Of a DNA stretch of 64,000 nucleotides, positions 12,605 through 64,000 are shown in pieces (positions within the stretch are counted from its first letter, which is position 1; every line of letters begins with the position of its first letter). The notes beneath the pieces are model-generated. The model saw only the letters and a program-made list of their open reading frames with translations, was not told the origin of the DNA and made no database searches. The translations under genes and the position numbers were made by a program. This DNA is from Naegleria gruberi (Eukaryota): the NCBI GenBank assembly GCA_000004985.1, contig GG738918.1; one strand, given 5' to 3'.

Positions 12605-12688
12605 TCCGATGAGACGGAATCGAACCGCCGACCACAGGATAACAATTACAACTACAGTCCCATGCTCTACCAGCTGAGCTATCATCGG
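12605..12688 (-). tRNA. tRNA-Tyr (GUA) with 11-nt intron
   Basis: The reverse complement reads CCGATGATAGCTCAGCTGGTAGAGCATGGGACTGTAG[ttgtaattgtt]ATCCTGTGGTCGGCGGTTCGATTCCGTCTCATCGGA. It has a 7-bp acceptor stem, a D-arm, and an anticodon stem TGGGA/TCCTG with loop CTGTAGA (anticodon GTA). The intron sits between positions 37 and 38 as in eukaryotic tRNA-Tyr. The T-arm is GGTTCGATTCC and the discriminator is A. Confidence 0.9.
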
Positions 12689-31001: not shown

Positions 31002-31196
31002 ATATCTAATTGATTACTGCATCGTGTAGGAATTAATACACTACATTTTTCTTTTCAGAAACGTGATCGCGATTTTCAAAGTTTACAATGCAATATTCAC
31101 CTTTCAAAATAATCACGTTTCGAATAATAACAATTCTCATTAGACAGACCTTTCAATCTTTCTAATAATTTACGTAAAATACAAAAAAATTCAAAC

Positions 31197-33575
31197 ATGT
31201 CTCTCCATAATAATTTGACAAGATGTCTTGTCATTTTCTGCTTGATCTTGAACCTTACTCAAGCGAATTTTCTGCTCGCATTCGAAGGTTCTGTTGGGAC
31301 AGGCACATGTGGCTTCAAAGATGGTGTTCCAAAGGACCAAGCACTCATTGGAAAGGCAACTTCATTATTCGAATCTCTAGTTGGTGACCTGTACTTTTAC
31401 GATACCTCAAACTTTCGTATAATGAAAGTTTCACAACAAGACAATCTTGTTTCCTCCATCATTGGCAATGGAAAGCTTGGTTATACAGAAGATCATTGTC
31501 AAGCAGATAAATGTGGTCTCACATTCGTGGATGGAATCTCACTAGTTTCAGATAAAATCTTTTATTTTGATAGAATTATAACACCAACGAGTAGTACAAG
31601 AATTCTGAGAGTGGTTGGATCTTCTGGTGTAGTGAATACTATTTGGCAAGTTGACTATTGGTTTCCAACAATGAATGACAATGAAAAGAGGACGTTTGTA
31701 GTGAGTGATGATGGAAAGTATTTATTCTTTAATCATGATAAGTTTATTTGGAAGATTAATTTGGCAAGTATGAAGATGGAGCTGTTTTATACTGAGCCTT
31801 TATCTAACAAGATTACAACGTTTACAATTTCAAGTAGTGGATTGATTTATTCAACTTTCAAAAATCAGTTTAGTTTCTTATATAGAAGTTTCAATATGGA
31901 TCCATCATCTGCCATTCTACTTACGAGTACATCTAACAACAATGATGCCTATCAAATCAACAAGGATTTGGGATTTGTTTCTCTTCCCAAATCAATTTAT
32001 TGCTCTAACTGTATATTTAGTTCAATTCAAACTTATGGAAATACTTTCAATTTCACGTTTAGTTTGAATTTTCAAGCTGTATACGCAGGAATAGCAGATC
32101 AATATCTAGTCCTATTGAGAAACAAATATTCCAATAATAGAATTGAATTCTCCAATCTTGATAATGGTTTCTTTTTCATTATTGATGATTGTAAGATTAC
32201 AAAATCAGATTACACTTCCCTTAATCAAGGTTGCACTGCCAGTTGCTCCAATCAAGGAACCTGTGTTGGACAAATTTGCAGTTGCAATGATGGATGGTTG
32301 GGTGATTCAATTTGTTCCAAATTTACATGTGAAAAAGTTGATGGTTGTGGCTTGAATGGACATTGCATTGGACCTAATCAGTGCGAATGTAAGAAGGGAT
32401 GGTCTGGTCCTAGTTGCAACGATTTTGATTGTTCGATGGCTAAGAATTGCAGTGGTCATGGCAAGTGTATTGGTTCAAATTATTGTGAATGTCAATCGGG
32501 ATGGCAAGGTTCTGACGATTGCTCTCAATTTTCATGTGAAAAGATTACGTGTCAGAATAATGGACAATGTAATGGTCCTAATCAATGTGAATGTCCATCT
32601 GGTTACAAGGGATCTCCTGATTGCTCAACAGTTTCTTGTGAACTAGTTGGAAATTGCAATTCACATGGATCTTGTGTCGCTCCAAATACTTGTAAATGTA
32701 AGGAGGGATGGAGTGGTAATGACTGCTCTCAATTTACATGTTCTCCATCGTGTCAGAATGGAGGAGTGTGTACAGCTCCTAATCAATGTAATTGTCCATC
32801 TGGATATAGAGGTAGTTTAGATTGTTCGAAACCTTCTTGTGAAGATCAGGGAAATTGTTATCTGAACGGAGAATGTGTTGGTCCAAATACTTGTAAATGT
32901 AATGTTGGTTGGCTTGGATCTAATTGTAAAGATCCAGATTGTCAATTATCATGCAATAATAGAGGAAAATGTTCGAAACCATACGAATGTGAATGTGAAG
33001 ACGGATGGAAAGGAATCAATTGTGAAGTATTTAGCTGTGAAAAACTCAATAATTGTAATAGTGCTAATCACCATGGCTCATGTATTGGTCCAAATATTTG
33101 TAAATGTAACGAAGGATGGAAAGGATTTCAATGTGATATTCCAACTTGTGAATTGGTTAGAAATTGTTCGAATGTTGGCAGTTGTGTATCTGCCAATACG
33201 TGCTCCTGTCCTTCAAAAAAGTATGGATCTAGCTGTCAATTCGATTTCGATTGTTTTGGTTTGGCACCTGACAATCCAAGTGTTTGTGAAAGTAGAGGAA
33301 CATGTGTAGGTCCAAATAATTGCAATTTTGGAGGTATTATTGCTTTCGTTGTAATATTCGTGATTCTTTTGGTAATTGTCTTTGTAGGAATTGTTAGCTT
33401 TATTCTGTTAGTTCTTTATAGAAAGCGAAAAAGAGAACAAAAGGAAGAAGAAAAACTCTTACAAAAGGCAATTTTAGCTGGAACTATTATAGCAGCAGCT
33501 GAACAACTGGCATCAAACAATAATGACCCAATAGATATTGAAAATAGAAACAACAGAGAAGGCGAAGGTGTTTAA
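31197..33575 (+). CDS. type I membrane protein: signal peptide + ~330-aa N-terminal beta-repeat region + ~14 tenascin-type EGF-like repeats + TM + short cytoplasmic tail
   Basis: ATG at 31197. Repeats of the form C-x-C-x2-GW-x-G-x2-C occur about every 31 aa (CECKKGWSGPSC, CKCKEGWSGNDC and so on). The TM helix is IIAFVVIFVILLVIVFVGIVSFILLVL, followed by the stop-transfer YRKRKREQKEEEK. Confidence 0.7.
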   Translation: MSLHNNLTRCLVIFCLILNLTQANFLLAFEGSVGTGTCGFKDGVPKDQALIGKATSLFESLVGDLYFYDTSNFRIMKVSQQDNLVSSIIGNGKLGYTEDHCQADKCGLTFVDGISLVSDKIFYFDRIITPTSSTRILRVVGSSGVVNTIWQVDYWFPTMNDNEKRTFVVSDDGKYLFFNHDKFIWKINLASMKMELFYTEPLSNKITTFTISSSGLIYSTFKNQFSFLYRSFNMDPSSAILLTSTSNNNDAYQINKDLGFVSLPKSIYCSNCIFSSIQTYGNTFNFTFSLNFQAVYAGIADQYLVLLRNKYSNNRIEFSNLDNGFFFIIDDCKITKSDYTSLNQGCTASCSNQGTCVGQICSCNDGWLGDSICSKFTCEKVDGCGLNGHCIGPNQCECKKGWSGPSCNDFDCSMAKNCSGHGKCIGSNYCECQSGWQGSDDCSQFSCEKITCQNNGQCNGPNQCECPSGYKGSPDCSTVSCELVGNCNSHGSCVAPNTCKCKEGWSGNDCSQFTCSPSCQNGGVCTAPNQCNCPSGYRGSLDCSKPSCEDQGNCYLNGECVGPNTCKCNVGWLGSNCKDPDCQLSCNNRGKCSKPYECECEDGWKGINCEVFSCEKLNNCNSANHHGSCIGPNICKCNEGWKGFQCDIPTCELVRNCSNVGSCVSANTCSCPSKKYGSSCQFDFDCFGLAPDNPSVCESRGTCVGPNNCNFGGIIAFVVIFVILLVIVFVGIVSFILLVLYRKRKREQKEEEKLLQKAILAGTIIAAAEQLASNNNDPIDIENRNNREGEGV

Positions 33576-36825: not shown

Positions 36826-37517
36826 CTCTATGGACATGATGATTCTCGGAGTGGTTTTACATGATGAAAGCACCAAACTTTCACAGCATCATCTCAACAT
36901 TATCTAAATAGTAATAATAATAGTAATTTTTATTGGTGGATTATCATCATGAAATTAGAAATTATTTTTCAGCATGGAAAATCACAAGTTGGTGTTTCAA
37001 CATCCGACCACCGGATCATTCACCAACCATCATCATTATTGTTTTCCATTAATAATAATATTTGTAGATATTAATTTTTAGTAATTTAATTTTGATTTGA
37101 AATGTCAAAATTTCACTAAATTCATCATCACTGCTGGATCTACTGGACAAGTTGGAAAACTGTCAATGTAGTATTGTTCGGAATGGTCAATAGTAGGTAG
37201 GAGAACTTTCTCTTATCAATTTTGGTCAAGTTATGATAGTGTGAATTATGAAAAAGTACATGGACCATAACTCAACACGTACTTCACCAATTTGAATCAT
37301 GTCTTTTAGTACTACTATTTAAATAGATAATAAACATCATATTTATTATCAGATTTTCATCATGTTGTCAATTTACCAAGTTCCGATATTTCATGCTACC
37401 AGAGTTGATTCATAGCCCAATTACAAATCAAACAACAATAAAACAACAATTCATAATGTTTATTATTATTAAATATATAATCTCGAGTATTGTATAGTAA
37501 TTTGTGAAAATCATGGA
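36826..37517 (+). repeat. dispersed structured repeat, copy 1 (longest; carries ~190-bp extra internal segment)
   Basis: About 85-90% identical to 55591..56090 and 50236..50462. The core contains nested imperfect inverted repeats: tttacatgatgaaagcacc pairs with ggtggattatcatcatgaaat, and atggaaaatcacaagttggtg pairs with caccaac…ttttccat. It lies entirely in intergenic DNA. Confidence 0.7.
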
Positions 37518-41851: not shown

Positions 41852-44374
41852 ATGAAAAGTCTATGGATTGATAGGATCATAAGAGACTTTTTCAAGTATA
41901 TTACCAAATCAACGGAAGATGACATGAAGAAATTTTGTATAAAACAACAAGTGGCTGCCCAAGGGTTTCCGCTCATGGTATCAACCAACGTTTCCATCAT
42001 TATCATGTTGGCAATAGTCTATGTGGAGTGGAATAGGAATATTCTCTTATCCTTTCTGTATATGACTTTACTTGACTTGCTGATTGATATTTCAATCATT
42101 GTATTGGTGAAAGTTTTGGCCACAAGGCAAAACATGGGAGCTTTGGAAATATTATTCTTCTTTAAGAATATTCTTCTAGGAACAGTGAGGATGTGCTCGC
42201 AGTGCTATCTAGGATTTAATGTGCCACTGTGGGTGATAAGTGCCTATTCACTAATTGTCATTTCACATGTTTCATTCTTTAAGAATTTTGTATCGGTGGT
42301 TTCCTGTCTTGTATTGATTCTTTCATCAGTGATGGGACAAGTTCTATCTGTATATATTGGAAAGGAGAATTTTGAGAGAGGTCAATTCATCACGAATCTC
42401 CATCAGCAAGCTCAGTCGCCTTACGTTTACTATTCAAATGACTATTATTATTACATTGGAAGAATTTTGGAGAGTACAATGTTGCAATTGACTGTTCTGA
42501 TAATTGGCTACATATTTGCAAAGAATGTGGAAAGGCAATATAATAATAGTCTGACCTTTCAAATTGAGGCAAAGAATGAAAGAATTTTGAACGAATCCAA
42601 AACTAGGTTCATCTCTAATTTGAGTCATGAAATGAGGTATGTGTTTTTTTAATAGTTCAATACTTAATTTTGATAAAGAAATCCACTTCATGGGATGATA
42701 GGCATTTCGGAAATTATGAAATTAGAGCTGAAAAAGACGATTTGTGCACTTTCACAAGTCGATTTTACAAAACCTGAAAGAGCAGAGGAGAAAATAACAG
42801 AAGCTGTCAATTCTAGTGAAGCAAATTTAGAAATGATTAAGGATATCAACAGTAATGCACAAATGCTTCTCCAAATTTTCTCAACATCATTGCAAATCAG
42901 TAATATGGAACTAGGAAAACTAAATTTGAATTATACTCCATTCAACGTTGTGGAAATGGTGGACTCTCTCGTTTCAGTATTTTCAACAATAGCTAAGGAA
43001 AAAGGACTGATACTACAATCCTTCTTTGATTTTGAAAATGTTCCAGTAATTGTAAAAGGTGATCATATTCGGCTCTCACAGGTATTAGTCAACTTTGTAT
43101 CCAACTCTGTGAAATACACCAAAAAGGGTAAAGTTTATTTGGATGTGAGCATGATAAAAAGTACAGACAAGGATTTCCCATTCAATGATCAAGCTATTGA
43201 AATTGATTTGGGAAAGGAAATTATTTCTGGCAATCAATTAGAATATATCAAGATTGTTTGTCAAGATACTGGAATAGGTATTCCAAAAGAAGAGCTTGGA
43301 AAGTTGTGTAAACCTTCCCATACTATACATCATACTGAAGGATCTGGACTCAATAATGTAGAATATGAAAAAGTCTATAGACACTTAATGGGTGGACAAA
43401 ATTCATTCAATGATAGACATGGAATAGGTCTCAGTTTATCTTTAAATTTCATTCATCTCATGAAGGGAAAATTGAATATCGAGAGTGAGCTCGATAAAGG
43501 AACCACCTTGACTCTCTACATTCCAGTAATCAAATGCTCTCCAGATGAATGTTCCAAGGTACACAACACTATATTTTCGAAAATTTCATGCCTCAAACAA
43601 TTGGGATCTTCTGCAATATCTAGGATAGTTATTCTAGAAGATGATCCTGAATATTTATCAATTCTAACAAAACTGTGCAATCAAATTCTCAAACCACCAA
43701 CCATTTCACACATTGAAAAACACAATGTTGTTGAATCTCTAACTGATATCACTGCTAACACACTAATTCTCTACAATCACAAAGATTACAAAGATGTAAT
43801 TGAAAGATTTTCTGGAAAACTCATTTCTAACAAGATAATTCCAATATTTAGACGAGGAGAAAAAATTCCAACCAAAGCAAAACCAATTGTATTGCCATCT
43901 AGAGTGGAAAGTATCATTAAGACTATTTATCACTGTCTATCTAACACTACCAAGAAGCTTCTCTCACCCAGCTCTGCAACAAGCACCATGGATATTGATA
44001 AGGCATTCGCTCTTCCACACAATAATAGGATTCTTGTAGTGGATGATAATGCAATCAACAGAAAACTCCTGAAGAAAGCACTAAACATGCTTGGATATTC
44101 GGCAGATATGGCATCGGATGGCTCTGAAGCGTTAGATCTCATCAAGAAACAACCAAACAGTTATGATATCATTTTCATGGATTTGTTAATGCCGAATATG
44201 GGAGGAAAAGATAGTTGTAAGTTTATGAGGGAATGGGGATGCAGATCTCAGATCATTGCTGTCACAGCAAATATTTGGGCGAGTTCCCAATCTTTGACTC
44301 AAAACGGATTTAGCTCGGTATTAAGGAAACCATTCACCATTGATGATATCAAACAAGTACTGAAACATGAGTAA
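41852..44374 (+). CDS. hybrid sensor histidine kinase (multi-TM sensor + HisKA + HATPase_c + receiver); join(41852..42636,42679..44374)
   Basis: Exon 1 encodes a ~5-6 TM N-terminus and ends inside the H-box (FISNLSHEM|R). A 42-nt intron (gtatgt…ataaag) joins in frame to RNPLHGMIGISEIM. The ATP-lid motifs are DTGIGIP and GIGLSLSLNF. The receiver domain is RILVVDDNAINRKLL…IIFMDLLMP…VLRKPF. Confidence 0.75.
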
Positions 44375-49980: not shown

Positions 49981-50235
49981 CAGAAATAATTAATTATCGC
50001 TTTTATATTGGATAATTTTGCTCGAGTAACAGCAAATCAATTAACACGACGAAAGGAAAATTTGAGCTTTGGATTTTCTTTTTGTGTTTTTATTATTATT
50101 TGATAACTGAATATTTAGTGATGATTGATTCTTGATGATTTCGTAGGTTCCGATTGATGTGAGGAAGAAAGGAAAAGGAACACCAGAAATCGAAATTTCA
50201 AATTCTTCGTAAAAAATATTTAAATGTTATCTGAT

Positions 50236-50462
50236 ATGGACGTGATAATTTTCGGGATGGTTTTACATGATGAAAGCACCAAACTTTCACAGCATCACCT
50301 CATCATTATCTAAATAGTAGTATTAATAGTAATTTTTATTGGAAGATTATATTCATGAAATTGGAAATTATTTTTCATCAATTAAAATCACAAGTTGGTG
50401 TATCATCATCTGATCCTTCACCAACCATCATCATTATTGTTTTCCATCAATAATGATAGTAT
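50236..50462 (+). repeat. dispersed structured repeat, copy 2 (5' truncated ~230 bp)
   Basis: Matches the 5' part of the elements at 36826 and 55591, including the flanking tatggacRtgatRattYtcgg prefix shared with copy 1. Confidence 0.65.
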
Positions 50463-50647
50463 TTGTGTGATTAAAAAGAAATTTTTCGTATTGAAAAGTA
50501 AAATAAATAAGATTTACTTTTATTTGTGAAACTTTACTACTATTTTCAATAGATAAGGAAGGAGAAACATCGAATAGTCTGTATGAATATTAGAAACTCG
50601 CCAATTTATTGACAACAATAATTTTAATAAATTTAAATAATAAAAAA

Positions 50648-51367
50648 ATGTTGCAACAAAGAAGATACGGATTGTATGCCATTTTGCATCCTCACCAACA
50701 AGAATACACCGATATTTATTATGAAGTTGCCTATTTTCTGCAATTGATGGATCAATTTATCAATCGTACTCATCAGGGAAAATCATACGAGGAAAAATTA
50801 GAGTTCGGAACACAGCATATTTGGGGAAATTTATTTCATATTACTCTTATTGGATTTGTGCCAATGATGGATTGTAATTTGGAAGAATTAAAGTCAGTTT
50901 TGAAGAGTTTAAAAATTGAAAAGGGAAAATTAAATTCGGAAAATGTAAAATTGGTTTGGCGAATGAGTAATGATAAGAAGGAGCCACTGTGGGATTTTAG
51001 AATTAGTTTTGAGAATGATGGATTTTGTCAAGTTGTGAATCAAATTCATGATAGGATGGAATTTTATAGAGAGGATAACAACAAGAGGAGATTAAGATTG
51101 AGGAATGATTATCATGGATCATTATTATCGGATGTCAAGCTTTCAAGAAGAGAAGAAATTGTAAAATATTTATCTCAATATCAATCTATAATTCCAACTC
51201 TGTATGAGTGTATGATTAAGGAGGATTCTAATAATTTGGAATCCATTCAACAAGTTATTGGTGAACAATTTAAAAAGCTTTCGTGGGCTTTACAGATAGT
51301 GAGCTATGAAGATCCAAAACAACCACTCAACAAATGGCAAGAACATGAAACGATTTTATTAGATTAA
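50648..51367 (+). CDS. hypothetical protein (239 aa)
   Basis: ATG at 50648 after an A7 run (MLQQRRYGLYAILHPHQQ); the ORF track's start at 50609 is a TTG. Continuous ORF with no recognisable domain. Its 3' end overlaps the convergent gene's 3' end by 9 bp. Confidence 0.4.
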   Translation: MLQQRRYGLYAILHPHQQEYTDIYYEVAYFLQLMDQFINRTHQGKSYEEKLEFGTQHIWGNLFHITLIGFVPMMDCNLEELKSVLKSLKIEKGKLNSENVKLVWRMSNDKKEPLWDFRISFENDGFCQVVNQIHDRMEFYREDNNKRRLRLRNDYHGSLLSDVKLSRREEIVKYLSQYQSIIPTLYECMIKEDSNNLESIQQVIGEQFKKLSWALQIVSYEDPKQPLNKWQEHETILLD

Positions 51368-53221: not shown

Positions 53222-53719
53222 TTAGAACATGAAGAAAGTAATGAGAGAAAGGATGAGGACAACCATAGCATGAGCACTCAAAGAATTGGCACTATTCCAA
53301 CAATTAGTTTCTGGAAATTTATCACACTTAATCTTCAAATCATAGTTACCACAGCCGTTAACCATAGCGTTGCACTTGCTCTTACACACATTCAAATAAC
53401 TAACACCACTAGCATCAGTAGTCAAGTAGCCTTGATTCTTTGGATCGCAAAATGCACAATTGTATTCCTTTAAGGCGTCAACACAAGAACCTTGAACACC
53501 ATTATTATTTGCAAGGGCAATAACAGCAGCCATTGTGGTGTCCATAGTAGCATCACAACAAGAATTTTTAGCAGAACCAGAACAAGTAGTACAGCTTGGA
53601 CAATAGCTTGGTTCAAAGTTAGGAGTCTTTGTCTTGCAAGTTTGAGCATTAGCAAAGGTGCAGACAAGCATGGTAGCAACCAAGAGAGTGAAAATAAGAG
53701 TTGACTTGTTAACAAACAT
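53222..53719 (-). CDS. small secreted Cys-rich GPI-anchored protein (ponticulin-like)
   Basis: Signal peptide MFVNKSTLIFTLLVATMLVCTFANA. About 14 Cys in 120 aa (CKTK…CPSCTTCSGSAKNSCCD…). The C-terminus has a small-residue omega region followed by a hydrophobic tail (SAHAMVVLILSLITFFMF*). Confidence 0.5.
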   Translation of the reverse strand: MFVNKSTLIFTLLVATMLVCTFANAQTCKTKTPNFEPSYCPSCTTCSGSAKNSCCDATMDTTMAAVIALANNNGVQGSCVDALKEYNCAFCDPKNQGYLTTDASGVSYLNVCKSKCNAMVNGCGNYDLKIKCDKFPETNCWNSANSLSAHAMVVLILSLITFFMF

Positions 53720-54124
53720 TATGTTATGTTGATTTTTTTGAGGTGTGTTAAGATGAACTAAGGCTAATAGCAACGATTAGCACTTACACTTCGCATTAGT
53801 ACTGTGCAAACTACAAGGATGTATTACAATGAATACGTTACTGTGCAAATTACAAAATCCTCGCACCAATTATCCGAAACAGATGCAATTTTATTCGGAC
53901 ATAACATAGGCTTTTTTGAAATTAGTCCACCCTAATATTCGGTCCAAAAAAGATCTCACAAACATTACGGTGCACCTTAAAAGGATTTCCCTATTGACTC
54001 ATAATATGTGTGTATTAAGCTGAATACTATTGTGCAACTCTACTTTGTTTACCTTTGCGTGTGGGGTCATCATAATGATTTAAGGTGTGTTTGCTAAGGG
54101 CTGTTGTTAAACTCTCCTCAACAT

Positions 54125-54180: not shown

Positions 54181-54320
54181 CGACTCTAAGGTTTTGTTAA
54201 GAAACTATTTTAAAGAGCATTGAAATTCCAGACTTCCTTAGCTTTCCTCAAGTTAAAAACTTGGCGGAGACACATGCTGTGGCAACAAAAAAACACCTTA
54301 AAAACAACATTAGTACAAAG

Positions 54321-55325
54321 ATGGCTAAGAAGAAGAGTGCCACTGAACAAAATATTAGAGATAGAATCAATCCTAATGACCCTGACACTACGATTTCCTT
54401 CTCATTGTCTCAATTCCCGATTAATGACCTCCTCAACAATAATTCATTCATTGATCGTCATCCTGATGTACTCGACATGATCTTTTATGAACCTGGTATT
54501 ATTGATACATTGAAGATGTTCAATACATGTACTGGATTTGTCTTGACTATTAACAGCTTGAAAGAAGTAAAGATTGGTAATTGGCTCCAAAACTCTGTCA
54601 AGAAGAAGAGTAGCGAAAATGAGATGGATCAAATGCTTTTCTTTATCAAAGACTATAGTGAAACCCAAATTTTCAACATTCTATTGAAGAATATTGACGC
54701 TATTGAAGATAGCATGGATCCTCAAGAATATTTTGATGAAGTTGCCAGATGTTGCTCTGAGGTTATTGTTAAGAATGTTCAAACTGAGAAAGTCAAGCCT
54801 CAATTATTTTCCTCCTCTGTTGAATATTCCATCTATGCTGTCTCTGAATCCATCAATAGAAATGATGTATTAGATCATCGTGGAATCAACTTGACCTTCT
54901 CTGGTAATATTGGTATTGAAAAATCAACTGGTGGCTTCTTAAAGAAGGGTAAGATTAACATTTTGCTTGACTTGAGTGTTAAGGTTGTTGTTTACAACAA
55001 CTACATGTTCTCTAAACGTGGTTTAACTTGTGTATTGAATGGTATGCGTGATAGAGAAGGAAAACTTAGACAAAAAGTTGTTGATGAAGATATTGAAAGA
55101 TCCAAGAATGATGCTGTTAATGCTCTTGAAGGTGGTAAGAAGGATTATGCCAAGAAACCTTCCACATTTACTGGTAGTCTTTTGAACATGGTCAATGAAA
55201 AGGTCCAAGATAAGGTTGATGCTAGAATTGAAGAGGAACGTAATAAGGTTTTGGATCGTATTGGTGTTAGCTCAGAAAATTGGGACAATAACAAACCAAG
55301 CAATCCAAATGTTCGTCAATTTTAG
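54321..55325 (+). CDS. hypothetical protein (334 aa, K/E-rich)
   Basis: ATG at 54321 (MAKKKSATEQNIRDR); the ORF track's start at 54261 is a TTG. Continuous ORF to the TAG at 55323-55325, after which coding-like sequence stops abruptly. Confidence 0.45.
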   Translation: MAKKKSATEQNIRDRINPNDPDTTISFSLSQFPINDLLNNNSFIDRHPDVLDMIFYEPGIIDTLKMFNTCTGFVLTINSLKEVKIGNWLQNSVKKKSSENEMDQMLFFIKDYSETQIFNILLKNIDAIEDSMDPQEYFDEVARCCSEVIVKNVQTEKVKPQLFSSSVEYSIYAVSESINRNDVLDHRGINLTFSGNIGIEKSTGGFLKKGKINILLDLSVKVVVYNNYMFSKRGLTCVLNGMRDREGKLRQKVVDEDIERSKNDAVNALEGGKKDYAKKPSTFTGSLLNMVNEKVQDKVDARIEEERNKVLDRIGVSSENWDNNKPSNPNVRQF

Positions 55326-55590
55326 ATTCACACTATTCAATAAACTTGCAAAATATTAATAGGTGTTTGAGTTTACTCCGAATTGTTGATTTAATGAAAA
55401 TGTTTCACCCCAAGATACAATTTCAATTTCAAAACGTTCATCATAGACAATGTGGGTGATGTGAAATTTAATTAAAAACAGAAAAATCAAAATGTGTTAT
55501 AGACCCACACACATTCTAGAACTTACCTCGCTCACAAAAACTAAGTTTTAACCCAATCTTCAAAAAAATATTCAACATTCTACTACTAAA

Positions 55591-56090
55591 GGAGTGGTTT
55601 TACATCATGAAACCACCAAACTTTCACATCATCATCTCAACATGATCTATATAGTAGTAATAATAGTAATTTTTATTGGTGGATTATCATCATGAAATTG
55701 GAATTTATTTTTCATGATGGAAAATCATAAGTTGGTGTTCCAGCATCGGATCATTCACCAACATCATTATTGTTTTCCATTAATAATAATATTTGTAGAT
55801 ATTAATTTGTAGTAATATAATTTTGGTGAAATGTAAAAATTTTCACTAAATTCATCATCACTGCTGGATCTACTGAACAAGTTGGAAAACTGTCAATGTA
55901 GTATTGTTCGGAATGGTCAATAGTAGGTAAGAGAATTTTCTCTTATCAATTTTGGATATTTGATGCCACCAGAGTTGATTCATAGCCCAATTACAAATCA
56001 AACAGCAATAAAACAACAATTCATAATGTTTATTATGTTATTAAATGTATAATTTCGAGTCTTGTAGCATAATTTGTGAAAATAATGGAT
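55591..56090 (+). repeat. dispersed structured repeat, copy 3 (plus a partial internal re-duplication at ~56150..56275)
   Basis: Collinear with copy 1 except for the ~190-bp internal indel. The sub-segment …catcatcactgc(t/c)(g/a)gat…ttggaaaact(g/t)tcaat(g/c)tagtattgttc…atggtcaat is repeated again 60 bp downstream. Confidence 0.7.
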
Positions 56091-58183
56091 ATCTGATATT
56101 TTCATGTTTTTCATAATATCCACTGAAACATCACGAATAGCATGTCATTCAATACATTCTCTACCAGATAATTATCTTTTCAAACATCATCACTGCCAGA
56201 TTTATATGATAATTTGGAAAACTTTCAATCTAGTATTGTTCAACATGGTCAATTCCATCAGGTAAAATCACTTCCGAACATTTCCCTATTGGTGATAGGT
56301 ACTTTGGGGTTTGGTTAGGATTCAGAGTTGATTTATTTGGGTTATTTAAGAGATTACTTAGTGAAGATTGATATCATTGATTATATTTCTTATCATCTAT
56401 AAATGATGTAAATTTGATGTTTTCATTTCTTATATTGATAGATATTTAAAGGTCAGGTCAGTATCAACTTTTGAATGATGGACTTTGAGAAGTCAAATGT
56501 TTGGGACGTGAATCTACTCATTAAATTGAATAGGTATTGCTAATAAAGGAACATTTCATTGATTTATTGATTATAACGGTCAAATTGAGTTGAATGTAAG
56601 TGAATCTAATGTTGATTGATCGTGGATGGGTAGTTTCGCCACGAAGTGGTGCAACTACCAACCTTTGTAGATTGAATCAGGTTGATTTGCATGCAATATG
56701 AATAAGTAACATTATCAAGAGTGATTATTCACCAATTCAACGATCAACATTCAATAATCGGTTTGATTTCAATCAATAGCTTGCTCATCAAGCTTTGAAT
56801 CAAGATTCCAGTAATTAACGGCAGTCTATTTTTAAATTTAATCAAGACCATATATAGTAGCTTGACTTTTATGATCTGGAAACTATCTAGATGTGTTCTA
56901 TATTGAATAATCTATTTGAAAATGAGATGAATTAACTCTTCTATTGAGTTTTATTGGTATTGCAAGGTATTACGATTATAATAATCTACATAGAAATCAC
57001 TCTTGAAATATTAACTGAACTACAATGTATGAGAAACATAATGGTGGTGGAATAAATCAATAACTCGTTGAAATGACTGAGATGGAATGTAAACTATGGT
57101 CTATTTGTTATGTAATGGTGACTAGACAGTGTCAATTTCATCAAATTATTTCAAACTGATTACAATCAATAAAAAAAACCACTCTATACACCAAATATAC
57201 CATACAGAATGAGTTTCAATATTTAACATTGTGAACTGACTCTGTTGGATACCATCTCTATAAATATAACAATATGAAAAGTGTCAACATTCAATTACAC
57301 ATGCATGTTACAATGGAGAGTCATCATTATATCATCTAAATAGGTTGTATTTCAAGTTTCAGTCACATTGACTGTCTAGATATTGAGATGTGAATACTAA
57401 GGCTGATGAAATGGTACCTTCACTGATTATTGACATGAACATTACAATTGATCATATGATTCTTGTATAAGTATTTCATTATTCAGTAATTGTGATATGA
57501 TGGTAAAATTTAATTTTGGAATTAAGATTCTTCCTAATTGATTACCTTAGATGTTCCTTAGTTGAGTTGAAGATACAGAGCCACGAATATGAAACTTTGT
57601 CAGATTGTTCTCCTCATCAAGGGAAGTGTATTCATATTTGATACTTGTATGATATTTTGTAAAATGAATGAGATGGAGTATATTCTATATGTTGAATTAT
57701 GACAATTTGACAGATTGTTATTATTATCATACTGAATTCAACTCTAATAGACTTAAATTGATACCATATGTATAACAGTGTGATTAAATGTATCTGGTAA
57801 AGTTACATGATGGTTGGATGTACTTTCATTGAGATAGAGTGTACACTTGGATAAAATCACTATTGACATTGAACATTTACTGACTTAATAATTGAAAGTA
57901 ATACGAATTGGTTCCAAACAGTATACAGTGTATTTAGTTGATGTATACTATATGTGGTATGAATTCTAGATTGATTGTATGTATAATGAGCGAGTTGGAG
58001 CATAAGCTTTGATTTCATGTCAAAGTTCTATAGTATAGTGATCGAGTTGACATTTCGACATACTGAACCAATATTTATGAAATTGATACCATATGTTAAT
58101 TAGAGTGTCTATATATCATGATATCAATTTCAGTGAAAATGGAGTTGTTTCTGTACCTTCAGATTTCCAGCCATTCCCTTGAA

Positions 58184-58626
58184 GGGTTTGGGTTGGGTTT
58201 GGGTTTAGGGTTTGGGTTGGGTTTGGGTTTGGGTTTGGGTTTGGGTTTGGGTTTGGGTTTGGGTTTGGGTTTGGGTTTGGGTTTGGGTTTGGGTTTGGGT
58301 TTGGGTTTGGGGTTTGGTTGGGTTTGGGTTTGGGTTTGGGTTTGGGTTTGGGTTTGGGTTTGGGTTTGGGTTTGGGTTTGGGTTTGGGTTTGGGTTTGGG
58401 TTTGGGTTTGGGTTTGGGTTTGGGTTTGGGTTTGGGTTTGGGTTTGGGTTTGGGTTTGGGTTTGGGTTTGGGTTTGGGTTTGGGTTTGGGTTTGGGTTTG
58501 GGTTTGGGTTGGGTTTGGGTTTGGGTTTGGGTTTGGGTTTGGGTTTGGGTTTGGGTTTGGGTTTGGGTTTGGGTTTGGGTTTGGGTTTGGGTTTGGGCTC
58601 TGGGTTTGGGTTTGGGTTTGGGTTTG
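58184..58626 (+). repeat. interstitial telomere-type (GGGTTT)n array with occasional variants (GGGTTTAGGG, GGGTT, GGGCTCT)
   Basis: About 70 direct hexamer repeats, G-strand on +, ending directly at a 50-N gap. Confidence 0.9.
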
Positions 58627-58676
58627 NNNNNNNNNNNNNNNNNNNNNNNNNNNNNNNNNNNNNNNNNNNNNNNNNN
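58627..58676. other. assembly gap (50 N)
   Basis: Run of n characters. Confidence 1.
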
Positions 58677-58744
58677 ATTGGCAACTTGGCTGATTCACTT
58701 GTTCAGTTTACCACCATTTAGATATTAGAGATATTTCCAATTAG

Positions 58745-60014
58745 AATAAATGATATTTTCGCTAACTACTCATCATTTGCAACATTTTCATATGTGTTTT
58801 ATTGACTGGAGTGATGTTTTTGATATCTGGATTTTCACCTTTCCATCCTTAAAGTCAACCTTAAAATATCAACCTTTACCTTACTATATTATCAAATTAC
58901 ATTTTAAAACTCTAAAATTGTATTCTACAACATTATTTGAGTTGTTAAACATGATGGAAGTGTTTCATAGAGAGGTCATTTTCCAGATTTTCATTCATGA
59001 CCATAGTTGACTAGATGGTATGAAAAGGATGAAATCATGAATATGAAAGTTAAAATAAACTTTATATTCTATCTCTACACATCGAATGGAGCATGTACAT
59101 GTATAATTTGTTGATTGAAGTGATATATTTGATAGACTTGATCTTACTTGTCTTTCCTTCAGTCAACTTTGTAAAATCAACATTTACATTCCCATGGTAC
59201 CATTTCTGATTATTAGTACATGAAATTAAACTCTATATCATTATAGATCATCTACATTATGATGGTAAAGTTTCAATAGTGGTCTTTTTTCAAAATTTCC
59301 ACCTTTTCATCATAGTTGACCATGTGTGATTGAGGGAAGAAATCTCTAAATATGAAAGTCAAAATAAATTTGATATTCGATGTTTACTAATCAAATGAAA
59401 CATTTTCATGGCAGGATTTAATATGTTTTGATGAGAAACTCAAAAGTTATAGTTGACCTATTTTACCTCACATCTTACCTTTTCACTCAATACTTTTATA
59501 TCTACAGACTTGAACTTTTGAAATTTCATATGAAAGTGATTATGAATGTTGTTAATGATGATATTTACTATATAATCTCATTAAACGATTTTGAAATTAT
59601 CATTCTTCCTATGGTTTCATTTTAACAATTTTAATCTGACATTATTTACAAAGTTAATATTTTATAAATTGAAAAACTAAATATACTACATTGTTCTACT
59701 CATCATTTACAATCGAATGATATAAAATTTAATGATATTTGAATAAGTTTATAATTTTGGGCTAGGGTTTGAACGTTGGGTTTAGAAGATTTCTATTTTT
59801 AATTCTGGGTTTGGGTTGGTGTTTATTGGGTCAATTTTATACATTTTCATACAATATATTGATGTTGAAATGTACCCTTTGATGTTTCTGGATGGGTAGC
59901 ATGATTTAGTGATGATTCCGACAATAAAAATCATATATTGTTCATATAATTATCAAGATATTGTATAATTTATTAAATATCAAGTGGGTAATATTGAATA
60001 TTCTCTATAAGAGC
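58745..60014 (+). repeat. subtelomeric tandem satellite, unit ~650 bp (one diverged unit 58745..59085, one full unit 59086..59750, then degenerate telomere-like junction 59755..59830 and 185 bp unique)
   Basis: 59086..59750 is about 88-90% identical to 62778..63440, including the paired small ORFs 59428..59625 and 63124..63354. The unit boundary is …ctactcatcatttacaatcgaatg|gagcat…. Confidence 0.8.
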
Positions 60015-62777
60015 NNNNNNNNNNNNNNNNNNNNNNNNNNNNNNNNNNNNNNNNNNNNNNNNNNNNNNNNNNNNNNNNNNNNNNNNNNNNNNNNNNNNNN
60101 NNNNNNNNNNNNNNNNNNNNNNNNNNNNNNNNNNNNNNNNNNNNNNNNNNNNNNNNNNNNNNNNNNNNNNNNNNNNNNNNNNNNNNNNNNNNNNNNNNNN
60201 NNNNNNNNNNNNNNNNNNNNNNNNNNNNNNNNNNNNNNNNNNNNNNNNNNNNNNNNNNNNNNNNNNNNNNNNNNNNNNNNNNNNNNNNNNNNNNNNNNNN
60301 NNNNNNNNNNNNNNNNNNNNNNNNNNNNNNNNNNNNNNNNNNNNNNNNNNNNNNNNNNNNNNNNNNNNNNNNNNNNNNNNNNNNNNNNNNNNNNNNNNNN
60401 NNNNNNNNNNNNNNNNNNNNNNNNNNNNNNNNNNNNNNNNNNNNNNNNNNNNNNNNNNNNNNNNNNNNNNNNNNNNNNNNNNNNNNNNNNNNNNNNNNNN
60501 NNNNNNNNNNNNNNNNNNNNNNNNNNNNNNNNNNNNNNNNNNNNNNNNNNNNNNNNNNNNNNNNNNNNNNNNNNNNNNNNNNNNNNNNNNNNNNNNNNNN
60601 NNNNNNNNNNNNNNNNNNNNNNNNNNNNNNNNNNNNNNNNNNNNNNNNNNNNNNNNNNNNNNNNNNNNNNNNNNNNNNNNNNNNNNNNNNNNNNNNNNNN
60701 NNNNNNNNNNNNNNNNNNNNNNNNNNNNNNNNNNNNNNNNNNNNNNNNNNNNNNNNNNNNNNNNNNNNNNNNNNNNNNNNNNNNNNNNNNNNNNNNNNNN
60801 NNNNNNNNNNNNNNNNNNNNNNNNNNNNNNNNNNNNNNNNNNNNNNNNNNNNNNNNNNNNNNNNNNNNNNNNNNNNNNNNNNNNNNNNNNNNNNNNNNNN
60901 NNNNNNNNNNNNNNNNNNNNNNNNNNNNNNNNNNNNNNNNNNNNNNNNNNNNNNNNNNNNNNNNNNNNNNNNNNNNNNNNNNNNNNNNNNNNNNNNNNNN
61001 NNNNNNNNNNNNNNNNNNNNNNNNNNNNNNNNNNNNNNNNNNNNNNNNNNNNNNNNNNNNNNNNNNNNNNNNNNNNNNNNNNNNNNNNNNNNNNNNNNNN
61101 NNNNNNNNNNNNNNNNNNNNNNNNNNNNNNNNNNNNNNNNNNNNNNNNNNNNNNNNNNNNNNNNNNNNNNNNNNNNNNNNNNNNNNNNNNNNNNNNNNNN
61201 NNNNNNNNNNNNNNNNNNNNNNNNNNNNNNNNNNNNNNNNNNNNNNNNNNNNNNNNNNNNNNNNNNNNNNNNNNNNNNNNNNNNNNNNNNNNNNNNNNNN
61301 NNNNNNNNNNNNNNNNNNNNNNNNNNNNNNNNNNNNNNNNNNNNNNNNNNNNNNNNNNNNNNNNNNNNNNNNNNNNNNNNNNNNNNNNNNNNNNNNNNNN
61401 NNNNNNNNNNNNNNNNNNNNNNNNNNNNNNNNNNNNNNNNNNNNNNNNNNNNNNNNNNNNNNNNNNNNNNNNNNNNNNNNNNNNNNNNNNNNNNNNNNNN
61501 NNNNNNNNNNNNNNNNNNNNNNNNNNNNNNNNNNNNNNNNNNNNNNNNNNNNNNNNNNNNNNNNNNNNNNNNNNNNNNNNNNNNNNNNNNNNNNNNNNNN
61601 NNNNNNNNNNNNNNNNNNNNNNNNNNNNNNNNNNNNNNNNNNNNNNNNNNNNNNNNNNNNNNNNNNNNNNNNNNNNNNNNNNNNNNNNNNNNNNNNNNNN
61701 NNNNNNNNNNNNNNNNNNNNNNNNNNNNNNNNNNNNNNNNNNNNNNNNNNNNNNNNNNNNNNNNNNNNNNNNNNNNNNNNNNNNNNNNNNNNNNNNNNNN
61801 NNNNNNNNNNNNNNNNNNNNNNNNNNNNNNNNNNNNNNNNNNNNNNNNNNNNNNNNNNNNNNNNNNNNNNNNNNNNNNNNNNNNNNNNNNNNNNNNNNNN
61901 NNNNNNNNNNNNNNNNNNNNNNNNNNNNNNNNNNNNNNNNNNNNNNNNNNNNNNNNNNNNNNNNNNNNNNNNNNNNNNNNNNNNNNNNNNNNNNNNNNNN
62001 NNNNNNNNNNNNNNNNNNNNNNNNNNNNNNNNNNNNNNNNNNNNNNNNNNNNNNNNNNNNNNNNNNNNNNNNNNNNNNNNNNNNNNNNNNNNNNNNNNNN
62101 NNNNNNNNNNNNNNNNNNNNNNNNNNNNNNNNNNNNNNNNNNNNNNNNNNNNNNNNNNNNNNNNNNNNNNNNNNNNNNNNNNNNNNNNNNNNNNNNNNNN
62201 NNNNNNNNNNNNNNNNNNNNNNNNNNNNNNNNNNNNNNNNNNNNNNNNNNNNNNNNNNNNNNNNNNNNNNNNNNNNNNNNNNNNNNNNNNNNNNNNNNNN
62301 NNNNNNNNNNNNNNNNNNNNNNNNNNNNNNNNNNNNNNNNNNNNNNNNNNNNNNNNNNNNNNNNNNNNNNNNNNNNNNNNNNNNNNNNNNNNNNNNNNNN
62401 NNNNNNNNNNNNNNNNNNNNNNNNNNNNNNNNNNNNNNNNNNNNNNNNNNNNNNNNNNNNNNNNNNNNNNNNNNNNNNNNNNNNNNNNNNNNNNNNNNNN
62501 NNNNNNNNNNNNNNNNNNNNNNNNNNNNNNNNNNNNNNNNNNNNNNNNNNNNNNNNNNNNNNNNNNNNNNNNNNNNNNNNNNNNNNNNNNNNNNNNNNNN
62601 NNNNNNNNNNNNNNNNNNNNNNNNNNNNNNNNNNNNNNNNNNNNNNNNNNNNNNNNNNNNNNNNNNNNNNNNNNNNNNNNNNNNNNNNNNNNNNNNNNNN
62701 NNNNNNNNNNNNNNNNNNNNNNNNNNNNNNNNNNNNNNNNNNNNNNNNNNNNNNNNNNNNNNNNNNNNNNNNNNNNN
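60015..62777. other. assembly gap (2763 N)
   Basis: Run of n characters. It is flanked on both sides by copies of the same satellite unit, so it probably hides about four more units. Confidence 1.
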
Positions 62778-63440
62778 ATGGAGCATTTTCATATGTAATT
62801 TATTGATTGAAGTGATATATTTGATAGAGTTGGTCTGACTTGTCTTTCATTAAAGTCAACTTTGTAAAATCAACATTTACATTCCCATGGTACCATTTCT
62901 GATTCTTATGATATGAAATTGAATTGTACATCATTATAGACCATCTACATCATGATGGTAAAGTTTCAATAGGTGGTCCTTTTTCAAGATTTCCACCTTT
63001 TCATACAAGTTGACCATATGTGTGATTGAGGGAAGAAATCTCTAAATATGAAAGTCAAAATAAATTTGATATTCGATTTTTACTAATCAAATGGAACATT
63101 TTCATGTCAGGATTTAATATGTTTTGATGAGAAACTCAAAAGTTATTGTTGACCTATTGTACCTCACAACTTCCCTTTTCACTCAATACTTTTATATCTA
63201 CAGACTTGAACTTTTGAAATTTGATATGAAAGTGATTATAAATGTTGTTAATGATGATATATACTATATAATCTCACTAAAGGATTTTGAAATTATCATT
63301 CTTCCTATGGTTTCATTTTACAAATTTTTAATCTTACATTATTTACAAAGTTAATATTTTATAAATTGAAAAACTAAATATAATACATTGTTCTACTCAT
63401 CATTTACAATCGAATGATATAACAATCAATAAATTGGCCT
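62778..63440 (+). repeat. subtelomeric tandem satellite, terminal unit, abutting the telomere through a ggcctagggtttgaac…tgggtctgg junction
   Basis: Collinear with 59086..59750. Confidence 0.8.
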
Positions 63441-63481
63441 AGGGTTTGAACTTTGAAACATTGGGTCTGGACTTAAATATT

Positions 63482-64000
63482 GGGTTTGGGTTTGGGTTTG
63501 GGTTTGGGTTTGGGTTTGGGTTTGGGTTTGGGTTTGGGTTTGGGTTTGGGTTTGGGTTTGGGTTTGGGTTTGGGTTTGGGTTTGGGTTTGGGTTTGGGTT
63601 TGGGTTTGGGTTTGGGTTTGGGTTTGGGTTTGGGTTTGGGTTTGGGTTTGGGTTTGGGTTTGGGTTTGGGTTTGGGTTTGGGTTTGGGTTTGGGTTTGGG
63701 TTTGGGTTGGGGTTTGGGTTTGGGTTTGGGTTTGGGTTTGGGTTTGGGTTTGGGTTTGGGTTTGGGTTTGGGTTTGGGTTTGGGTTTGGGTTTGGGTTTG
63801 GGTTTGGGTTTGGGTTTGGGTTTGGGTTTGGGTTTGGGTTTGGGTTTGGGTTTGGGTTTGGGTTTGGGTTTGGGTTTGGGTTTGGGTTTGGGTTTGGGTT
63901 TGGGTTTGGGTTTGGTTTGGGGTTGGTTGGTTTTAGCTTTTGGTTTGGGTTTGGGTTTGGGTTTGGCTTTGGGTTTGGGTTTGGGTTGGGTTTGGGTTTG
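63482..64000 (+). repeat. terminal telomere array (GGGTTT)n, G-rich strand 5'→3' toward the window end (chromosome right end)
   Basis: More than 80 near-perfect hexamer repeats run to the last base. Variants appear only in the final 100 bp (GGTTTGGGGTTGGTTGG, GGCTTT). Confidence 0.9.

Follow-up and report, generated by a model that had tools for sequence, protein, structure and literature searches.

Does an array of telomere repeats that lies inside a scaffold mark a chromosome end over which the assembly has run, or a tract that is truly internal to the chromosome? This question is raised by the last part of a 64,000-nt stretch of Naegleria gruberi DNA (hereafter, the window), taken from a 222,118-bp source contig, in which a first (GGGTTT)n array, TEL1, is followed by further sequence and then by a second array, TEL2, which reaches the window end. 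The unit TTTGGG had been put forward as the candidate N. gruberi telomere on the basis of terminal blocks at the scaffold ends of the same assembly (Fulneckova et al., 2013; PMC3622300), and internal blocks of telomere units were also found to be present in many assemblies (PMC3622300). TEL1 is a genuine telomere array of this already known type, situated where a contig ends inside a draft scaffold and, judging from the sequence around it, its interstitial status is more likely due to scaffolding than to chromosome structure.

Assembly of the scaffold tail

The tail of the scaffold is made up, in this order, of contig 1 (the genes and TEL1), 50 N, contig 2, 2763 N, and contig 3 (a copy of a repeat designated element A, and TEL2), as detailed in Table 1. 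The public N. gruberi assembly was produced by JGI from whole-genome shotgun Sanger reads, paired ends being used for the scaffolding. Both distal contigs are small, with a length of 1338 bp for contig 2 and of at least 1223 bp for contig 3, and they are joined by N runs only. The initial annotation had placed a 50-N gap directly after TEL1 and interpreted it as a fixed-size placeholder. The N run is indeed exactly 50 positions long, and the interpretation fits a scaffold in which a round 50 N coexists with a sized run of 2763 N. This coexistence suggests that 50 N is the floor value given to a small or negative estimate based on mate pairs; our literature search yielded nothing usable on a 50-N floor as an assembler gap convention. 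The spacing of 5.4 kb that had been described between the two arrays is correct in terms of coordinates, but the second gap, of 2763 N, had been overlooked: among the 4853 positions that separate TEL1 from TEL2, only 2040 are real bases (58677-60014 and 62778-63479), and more than half of the approximately 5.4 kb described is made up of N.

TEL2 had been taken as the real terminal array, a status that the layout does not bear out since it belongs to a contig of its own, at least 1223 bp long, behind the 2763-N gap. The non-telomeric portion of this contig amounts to 702 bases. It opens with the terminal copy of element A, which starts exactly at the edge of the gap (62778). At its other extremity, just before TEL2, the terminal junction motif opens a pair of degenerate 19-bp units (63442-63489, TRF period 19), both with GGGTYT at their head. 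TEL2 is linked to this chromosome via mate pairs only, like the join beyond 58626, and it is no better anchored than TEL1. The term subtelomeric satellite, used for the DNA behind TEL1, was also too strong for what proved to be two short contigs of low-copy, diverged repeats; Tandem Repeats Finder (TRF) indeed makes no repeat call on the 309-bp units of contig 2, which are too diverged. Two premises of the initial annotation therefore fail, but the three options that it listed (a scaffolding artefact, a true interstitial array, or an old end that was later extended) remain a reasonable set, which includes the one preferred below.

Table 1. Positions of the features described in the window (N. 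gruberi, 64,000 nt)
Feature	Position	Strand	Description
Dispersed repeat, unclassified	36829-37517; 50235-50458; 55591-56089 + 56185-56253	same orientation	86-91% identity, intergenic
Gene-free AT-rich tract	55326-58183		between the last long ORF (end 55325) and TEL1
TEL1, (GGGTTT)n	58184-58626	+	G-rich strand toward the window end; stops exactly at the contig end
Gap 1	58627-58676		exactly 50 N; scaffold join without sequence support
Contig 2	58677-60014	+	1338 bp of subtelomere-type repeat DNA; left end without telomere repeat
Two diverged tandem units, 309 bp each	58745-59362	+	families D5, D6, D8, D9, spacing 308-309
Element A, internal copy	59086-59733	+	92.5% identical over 653 bp to 62778-63430
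Junction motif CTAGGGTTTGAAC, internal copy	59762-59774	+	after the internal element A copy
Putative telomere relic GGGTTTGGGTTGGTGTTTATTGGGT	59807-59831	+	25 bp, in-contig; sole GGGTTTGGGTT outside both arrays
Gap 2	60015-62777		sized run of 2763 N
Contig 3, unique part	62778-63479	+	terminal element A copy, junction motif (63439-63451), two degenerate 19-bp units
TEL2, (GGGTTT)n	63480-64000	+	87 units (87.5 copies by TRF), up to the window end

The TEL1 array and its proximal flank

TRF described TEL1 as a period-6 array with the consensus GGGTTT (58184-58626, 74.2 copies, 96% matches), in line with the block of about 440 bp, oriented like the later array, that had been reported at this place; the G-rich strand of TEL1 is indeed that of the array which reaches the window end, and genes lie on its proximal side only. 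When split into units, the array comprises 74, of which 68 are perfect GGGTTT, the others being a few GGGTT, GGGGTTT and GGTT, and one inserted A. This unit (TTTGGG/GGGTTT) corresponds to the one reported for the telomere of the species (PMC3622300). The variant units are grouped mostly at the two extremities, with three variants among the first seven units and others in the final 30 nt (GGGCTCTGGG), where an error lies about 25 nt ahead of the stop of the array (errors near 58597-58602). The variant-unit pattern of TEL2 is different, and for this reason TEL1 and TEL2 are considered to be separate arrays. Throughout the window, the 11-mer GGGTTTGGGTT was counted 140 times, versus 0.03 expected, and all but one of these occurrences fall within TEL1 and TEL2. 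On its proximal side TEL1 is contiguous with non-telomeric DNA, through an abrupt junction (CCCTTGAA/GGGTTT, ending in TTGAA/GGGTTT) without any TG-rich seed or transition, and on its distal side it is followed by the 50 N and then by the non-telomeric start of a contig.

Such an abrupt junction, devoid of a TG-rich transition, would also be expected from a chimeric clone or read, formed during library construction when telomeric DNA became ligated to a sheared piece with its end at 58183, the chromosome itself continuing beyond this point without a telomere. The distal part of the array was probably covered by very few reads, as indicated by the errors near 58597-58602, and this would favor such an accident. 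However, with a project coverage that we assume to be about 8x, several true reads across 58183 should outvote one chimera, and the consensus is telomere for 443 bp. Furthermore, contig 2 contains no continuation that overlaps the left flank of TEL1, and TEL1 points exactly as a right-hand end should, an outcome expected from random ligation only half the time. A chimera consequently appears very improbable to us.

In the tract that separates TEL1 from the last long ORF, all ORFs are shorter than 60 aa and the GC content is 28-31%, the window as a whole having a GC content of 33.5%. One copy of the dispersed repeat (55591-56253) lies inside this tract; terminal inverted repeats were looked for in this copy, and none were found.

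Repeats and a telomere-like tract in contig 2

The two 309-bp units of contig 2 (58745-59053 and 59054-59362) are 68% identical, and a third unit of this type, within the region 58745-59671, has only its first 50 nt or so in common with the others. The first 68 nt of the contig show a weak similarity to the tail of the 309-bp unit (z up to 2.8). When the first 200 nt of contig 2 were compared with positions 1-58183, zero common 14-mers were found; for the start of the contig, shorter matches to the same positions exceeded those in shuffled sequence by a modest margin only, at 28 versus 18 for 11 nt and 10 versus 4.9 for 12 nt. Profile searches of 55326-58183 gave no significant match to the 309-bp units or to element A, and the proposal that TEL1 is part of the distal repeat family was rejected on these grounds. 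Exact-match scans of metagenomes with a conserved 24-mer of element A and with a 26-mer from the left flank of TEL1 gave 0 matches each, and our literature search found no paper on Naegleria subtelomere structure.

The junction motif CTAGGGTTTGAAC has two matches only in the window (59762 and 63439, for 0.05 expected), and each of them follows a copy of element A, in which ORFs of 65-86 aa are present. Both the motif and element A are absent from the proximal flank of TEL1, according to motif and profile searches. Behind the internal copy of the motif lies the short telomere-like tract GGGTTTGGGTTGGTGTTTATTGGGT, which starts 32 nt past the motif, when TEL2 starts 30 nt past the terminal one. 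The tract therefore has a position homologous to that where TEL2 starts, and it is followed by 184 bp of unrelated sequence in the same contig. Being in-contig, with sequence on both sides, it corresponds to the definition of an interstitial telomeric sequence. It may be regarded as either an internalised and decayed old telomere or a telomere-like seed onto which, in the paralogous copy, a telomere was added. The presence in one contig of a conserved junction motif and of a decayed telomere tract suggests that in Naegleria subtelomeres either old telomeres become internal or telomere-like tracts act as seeds for new ones, and this suggestion holds whatever TEL1 is. The telomere unit of N. gruberi had already been proposed; these two features of contig 2 are modestly new.

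Origin of the internal array

The contig anatomy leans toward an artefact or an alternative chromosome end. In the explanation that we favor, to which we attribute a probability of about 0.6, TEL1 would be an ordinary N. gruberi telomere, capping molecules that end just past 58183, and its interstitial place would result from scaffolding. Reads anchored to the left of 58184 would have run into a terminal array as far as Sanger reads can reach, i.e., 443 bp, and mate pairs would then have set contig 2 (58677-60014) and contig 3 (62778-64000) beyond TEL1. Several observations argue for this terminal nature. Those that weigh most are the stop of TEL1 at a contig end after 443 bp, the non-telomeric start of contig 2, and the round 50 N beside a sized gap. 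TEL1 is the sole telomere array whose link to the 58 kb of unique, gene-bearing DNA consists of sequence, the later joins being made of 50 and 2763 N. It is 96% pure over at least 443 bp, and the errors at its distal tip resemble a low-quality read tail, which also applies to TEL2; for comparison, contig 1 extends 443 bp and contig 3 at least 521 bp into GGGTTT. It is oriented as expected at the right-hand end of a chromosome, the DNA at 55326-58183 is already gene-free and AT-rich, as expected beside an end, and TTTGGG had been identified earlier as the candidate telomere of this assembly (PMC3622300).

The features expected of a scaffolding artefact were found here, namely a join made of N only, a 50-N run versus a 2763-N run, and short contigs that share a repeat at 92.5% identity. 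Contigs 2 and 3 are tiny and repetitive, and carry these near-identical copies of element A, which makes it plausible that they were placed by pairs alone. Moreover, the left end of contig 2 is free of GGGTTT, when reads anchored there should carry repeats if this contig abutted an interstitial array, which argues that it does not. If, however, the left flank of contig 2 were a masked high-copy repeat, its missing GGGTTT would weigh less.

Molecules capped at TEL1 may have come to be followed by contigs 2 and 3 in two ways. In the first, whose chances we place a little below even, a longer version of this end would exist on the homologue, or on a near-identical paralogous end, alongside the short capped version. 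The long version would carry the 309-bp units, element A and TEL2, and the short one would have lost everything beyond 58183 and received its cap from telomerase, the assembler having put both branches in one line. The pair links would then be real and the estimated gap negative by about the length of the array, so that a negative or tiny mate-pair distance would have led to the floor of 50 N. In the second, which we consider to be improbable, contigs 2 and 3 would come from another chromosome end, as the result of a plain misjoin. Since scaffolders normally require several concordant pairs, contigs 2 and 3 are probably truly linked to the core. In both cases, TEL1 would perform normal telomere work, that is to say end protection and service as a telomerase substrate. 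Some observations run counter to a capped end at 58183. The start of contig 2 does not overlap the left flank of TEL1, and the long form is not directly seen. The junction lacks a TG-rich seed, and the first units of TEL1 are rich in variants, unlike those that recent healing typically yields. Finally, the tract at 59807-59831 may show that telomere tracts become internal in this subtelomere.

If contigs 2 and 3 are truly linked to the core, this fits a forked end and an interstitial array equally well. In the latter case, the array of at least 443 bp would be that of a former end, retained when a module (309-bp units, element A and a new telomere) was added distally. Such an addition could come about by recombination with another end or by break-induced copying of it, as for the internal TG1-3 tracts that separate X from Y' elements in budding yeast, the assembler being unable to cross the array and the adjacent repeats. 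Contigs 2 and 3 are indeed oriented as for the same right-hand end, with the motif and the relic pointing as TEL2 does, and the relic, which is supported by reads and lies at the position homologous to the TEL2 start, indicates that internalised tracts may exist. The three variants in the first seven units of TEL1 would also befit an old and stable proximal telomere, and a small gap estimate is compatible with an array slightly longer than the one assembled. By contrast, if the array went on for only some 50 bp past its assembled 443 bp, Sanger reads should have spanned it and the contigs would have merged, while a much longer one should have yielded a sized gap. Distally there is no sequence continuity, and contig 2 begins without telomere repeats. 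In addition, a purity of 96% over 443 bp would require very recent internalisation, when the relic in contig 2 has decayed to 25 bp, and the junction motif and element A, which precede both TEL2 and the relic, are missing from the proximal flank of TEL1. In view of this, we regard a true interstitial array as unlikely.

This alternative may be taken further, into a stack of telomere-capped modules in which TEL1 would be a full-length array kept inside after a distal module (309-bp units, element A, junction motif and new telomere) was copied onto an old end, and the relic would be the trace of an older round. In a variant of it, clonal lines may possess long and short versions of one end as a result of truncation and healing. 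We hold such stacking to be doubtful; if true, it would constitute the first description of subtelomere architecture and of telomere-led end extension in a heterolobosean.

Comparison with known telomeric arrangements

In a known class of artefacts, scaffolding of whole-genome shotgun data places contigs from alternative haplotypes, or repeat contigs, in a single line, or attaches subtelomeric repeat contigs to contigs that end in a telomere. TEL1 resembles this class by its N-only join, the round, minimum-size gap, the repetitive distal contigs of about 1.3 kb, and the array that ends at the contig end; it differs from it in that the artefact is here deduced from contig anatomy.

In Saccharomyces cerevisiae, internal TG1-3 tracts of tens to about 150 bp separate X from Y' elements and tandem Y' elements from each other. 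The present tail is reminiscent of this organisation, with a telomere-adjacent element (element A and the motif) that is present twice and a short telomere-like tract (59807-59831) after the inner copy. A putative stacking of the X-ITS-Y' type would comprise the two copies of element A (92.5% identity) and the relic after the inner one, and its adjacency to TEL1 depends on the 50-N join. Unlike the yeast tracts, TEL1 is nearly pure over at least 443 bp, and in this scaffold it is contiguous with flanking DNA on its proximal side only; unlike the yeast ends, no coding element of the Y' type is present here.

Chromosome healing by de novo telomere addition is known in yeast, Plasmodium, human terminal deletions and ciliates. 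TEL1 shares with such healed ends an abrupt junction between unique and telomeric DNA, without the canonical junction seen at TEL2. It differs from them by the lack of a TG-rich seed, by its variant-rich first units and by the fact that the unbroken version was not found in the window: no sequence in these 64 kb extends the flank past the breakpoint at 58183, as an intact locus would.

The closest point of comparison is the TTTGGG candidate itself, which has the same unit, in the same organism and the same assembly, with the G-rich strand pointing outward in both cases (PMC3622300). That survey scored blocks at scaffold ends and generally treated internal ones as uninformative (PMC3622300); TEL1 is internal to its scaffold but terminal in its contig. 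Counts of interstitial telomere blocks drawn from this draft assembly would be inflated by such cases. Those who use this scaffold should consider 58626 as a possible true chromosome end and the last 5.4 kb, of which about half or more is N, as unproven linkage.

Gene-bearing DNA of the window

The window is compact, with long, uninterrupted ORFs under the standard genetic code (up to 1799 aa), and the domains of these ORFs are ordinary eukaryotic ones (PI4-kinase, hybrid histidine kinase, EGF repeats and hydantoinase). The hydantoinase ORF shows 100% identity to an N. gruberi protein. The GGGTTT unit had at first pointed to a ciliate, namely to Paramecium macronuclear DNA in which alternative fragmentation sites would account for the arrays, and this origin was rejected in view of the long standard-code ORFs and of the identical N. 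gruberi protein. The hydantoinase has an orthologue in Naegleria lovaniensis (55% identity; region 111209-134598 of PYSW02000031.1), which lies in the middle of a contig among unrelated neighbors. Since its neighbors are different, gene order near this N. gruberi end is not conserved in N. lovaniensis, and the N. lovaniensis locus is uninformative on this chromosome end.

Two of the last ORFs before the end, at 50594-51364 (+) and 54261-55325 (+), have no Pfam match, and a third, at 53222-53773 (-), codes for a cysteine-rich protein of 183 aa with a hydrophobic N-terminal region; all three may be lineage-specific subtelomeric genes. A tRNA gene at 12605-12688 (-), far from TEL1, is the sole Rfam match in the window. 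The hybrid histidine kinase/response-regulator ORF is located at 42677-44371. The ORF at 31131-33572 (+) is rich in EGF repeats, with matches to teneurin-type EGF, and bears an internal tandem duplication of about 200 bp (32445-32902).
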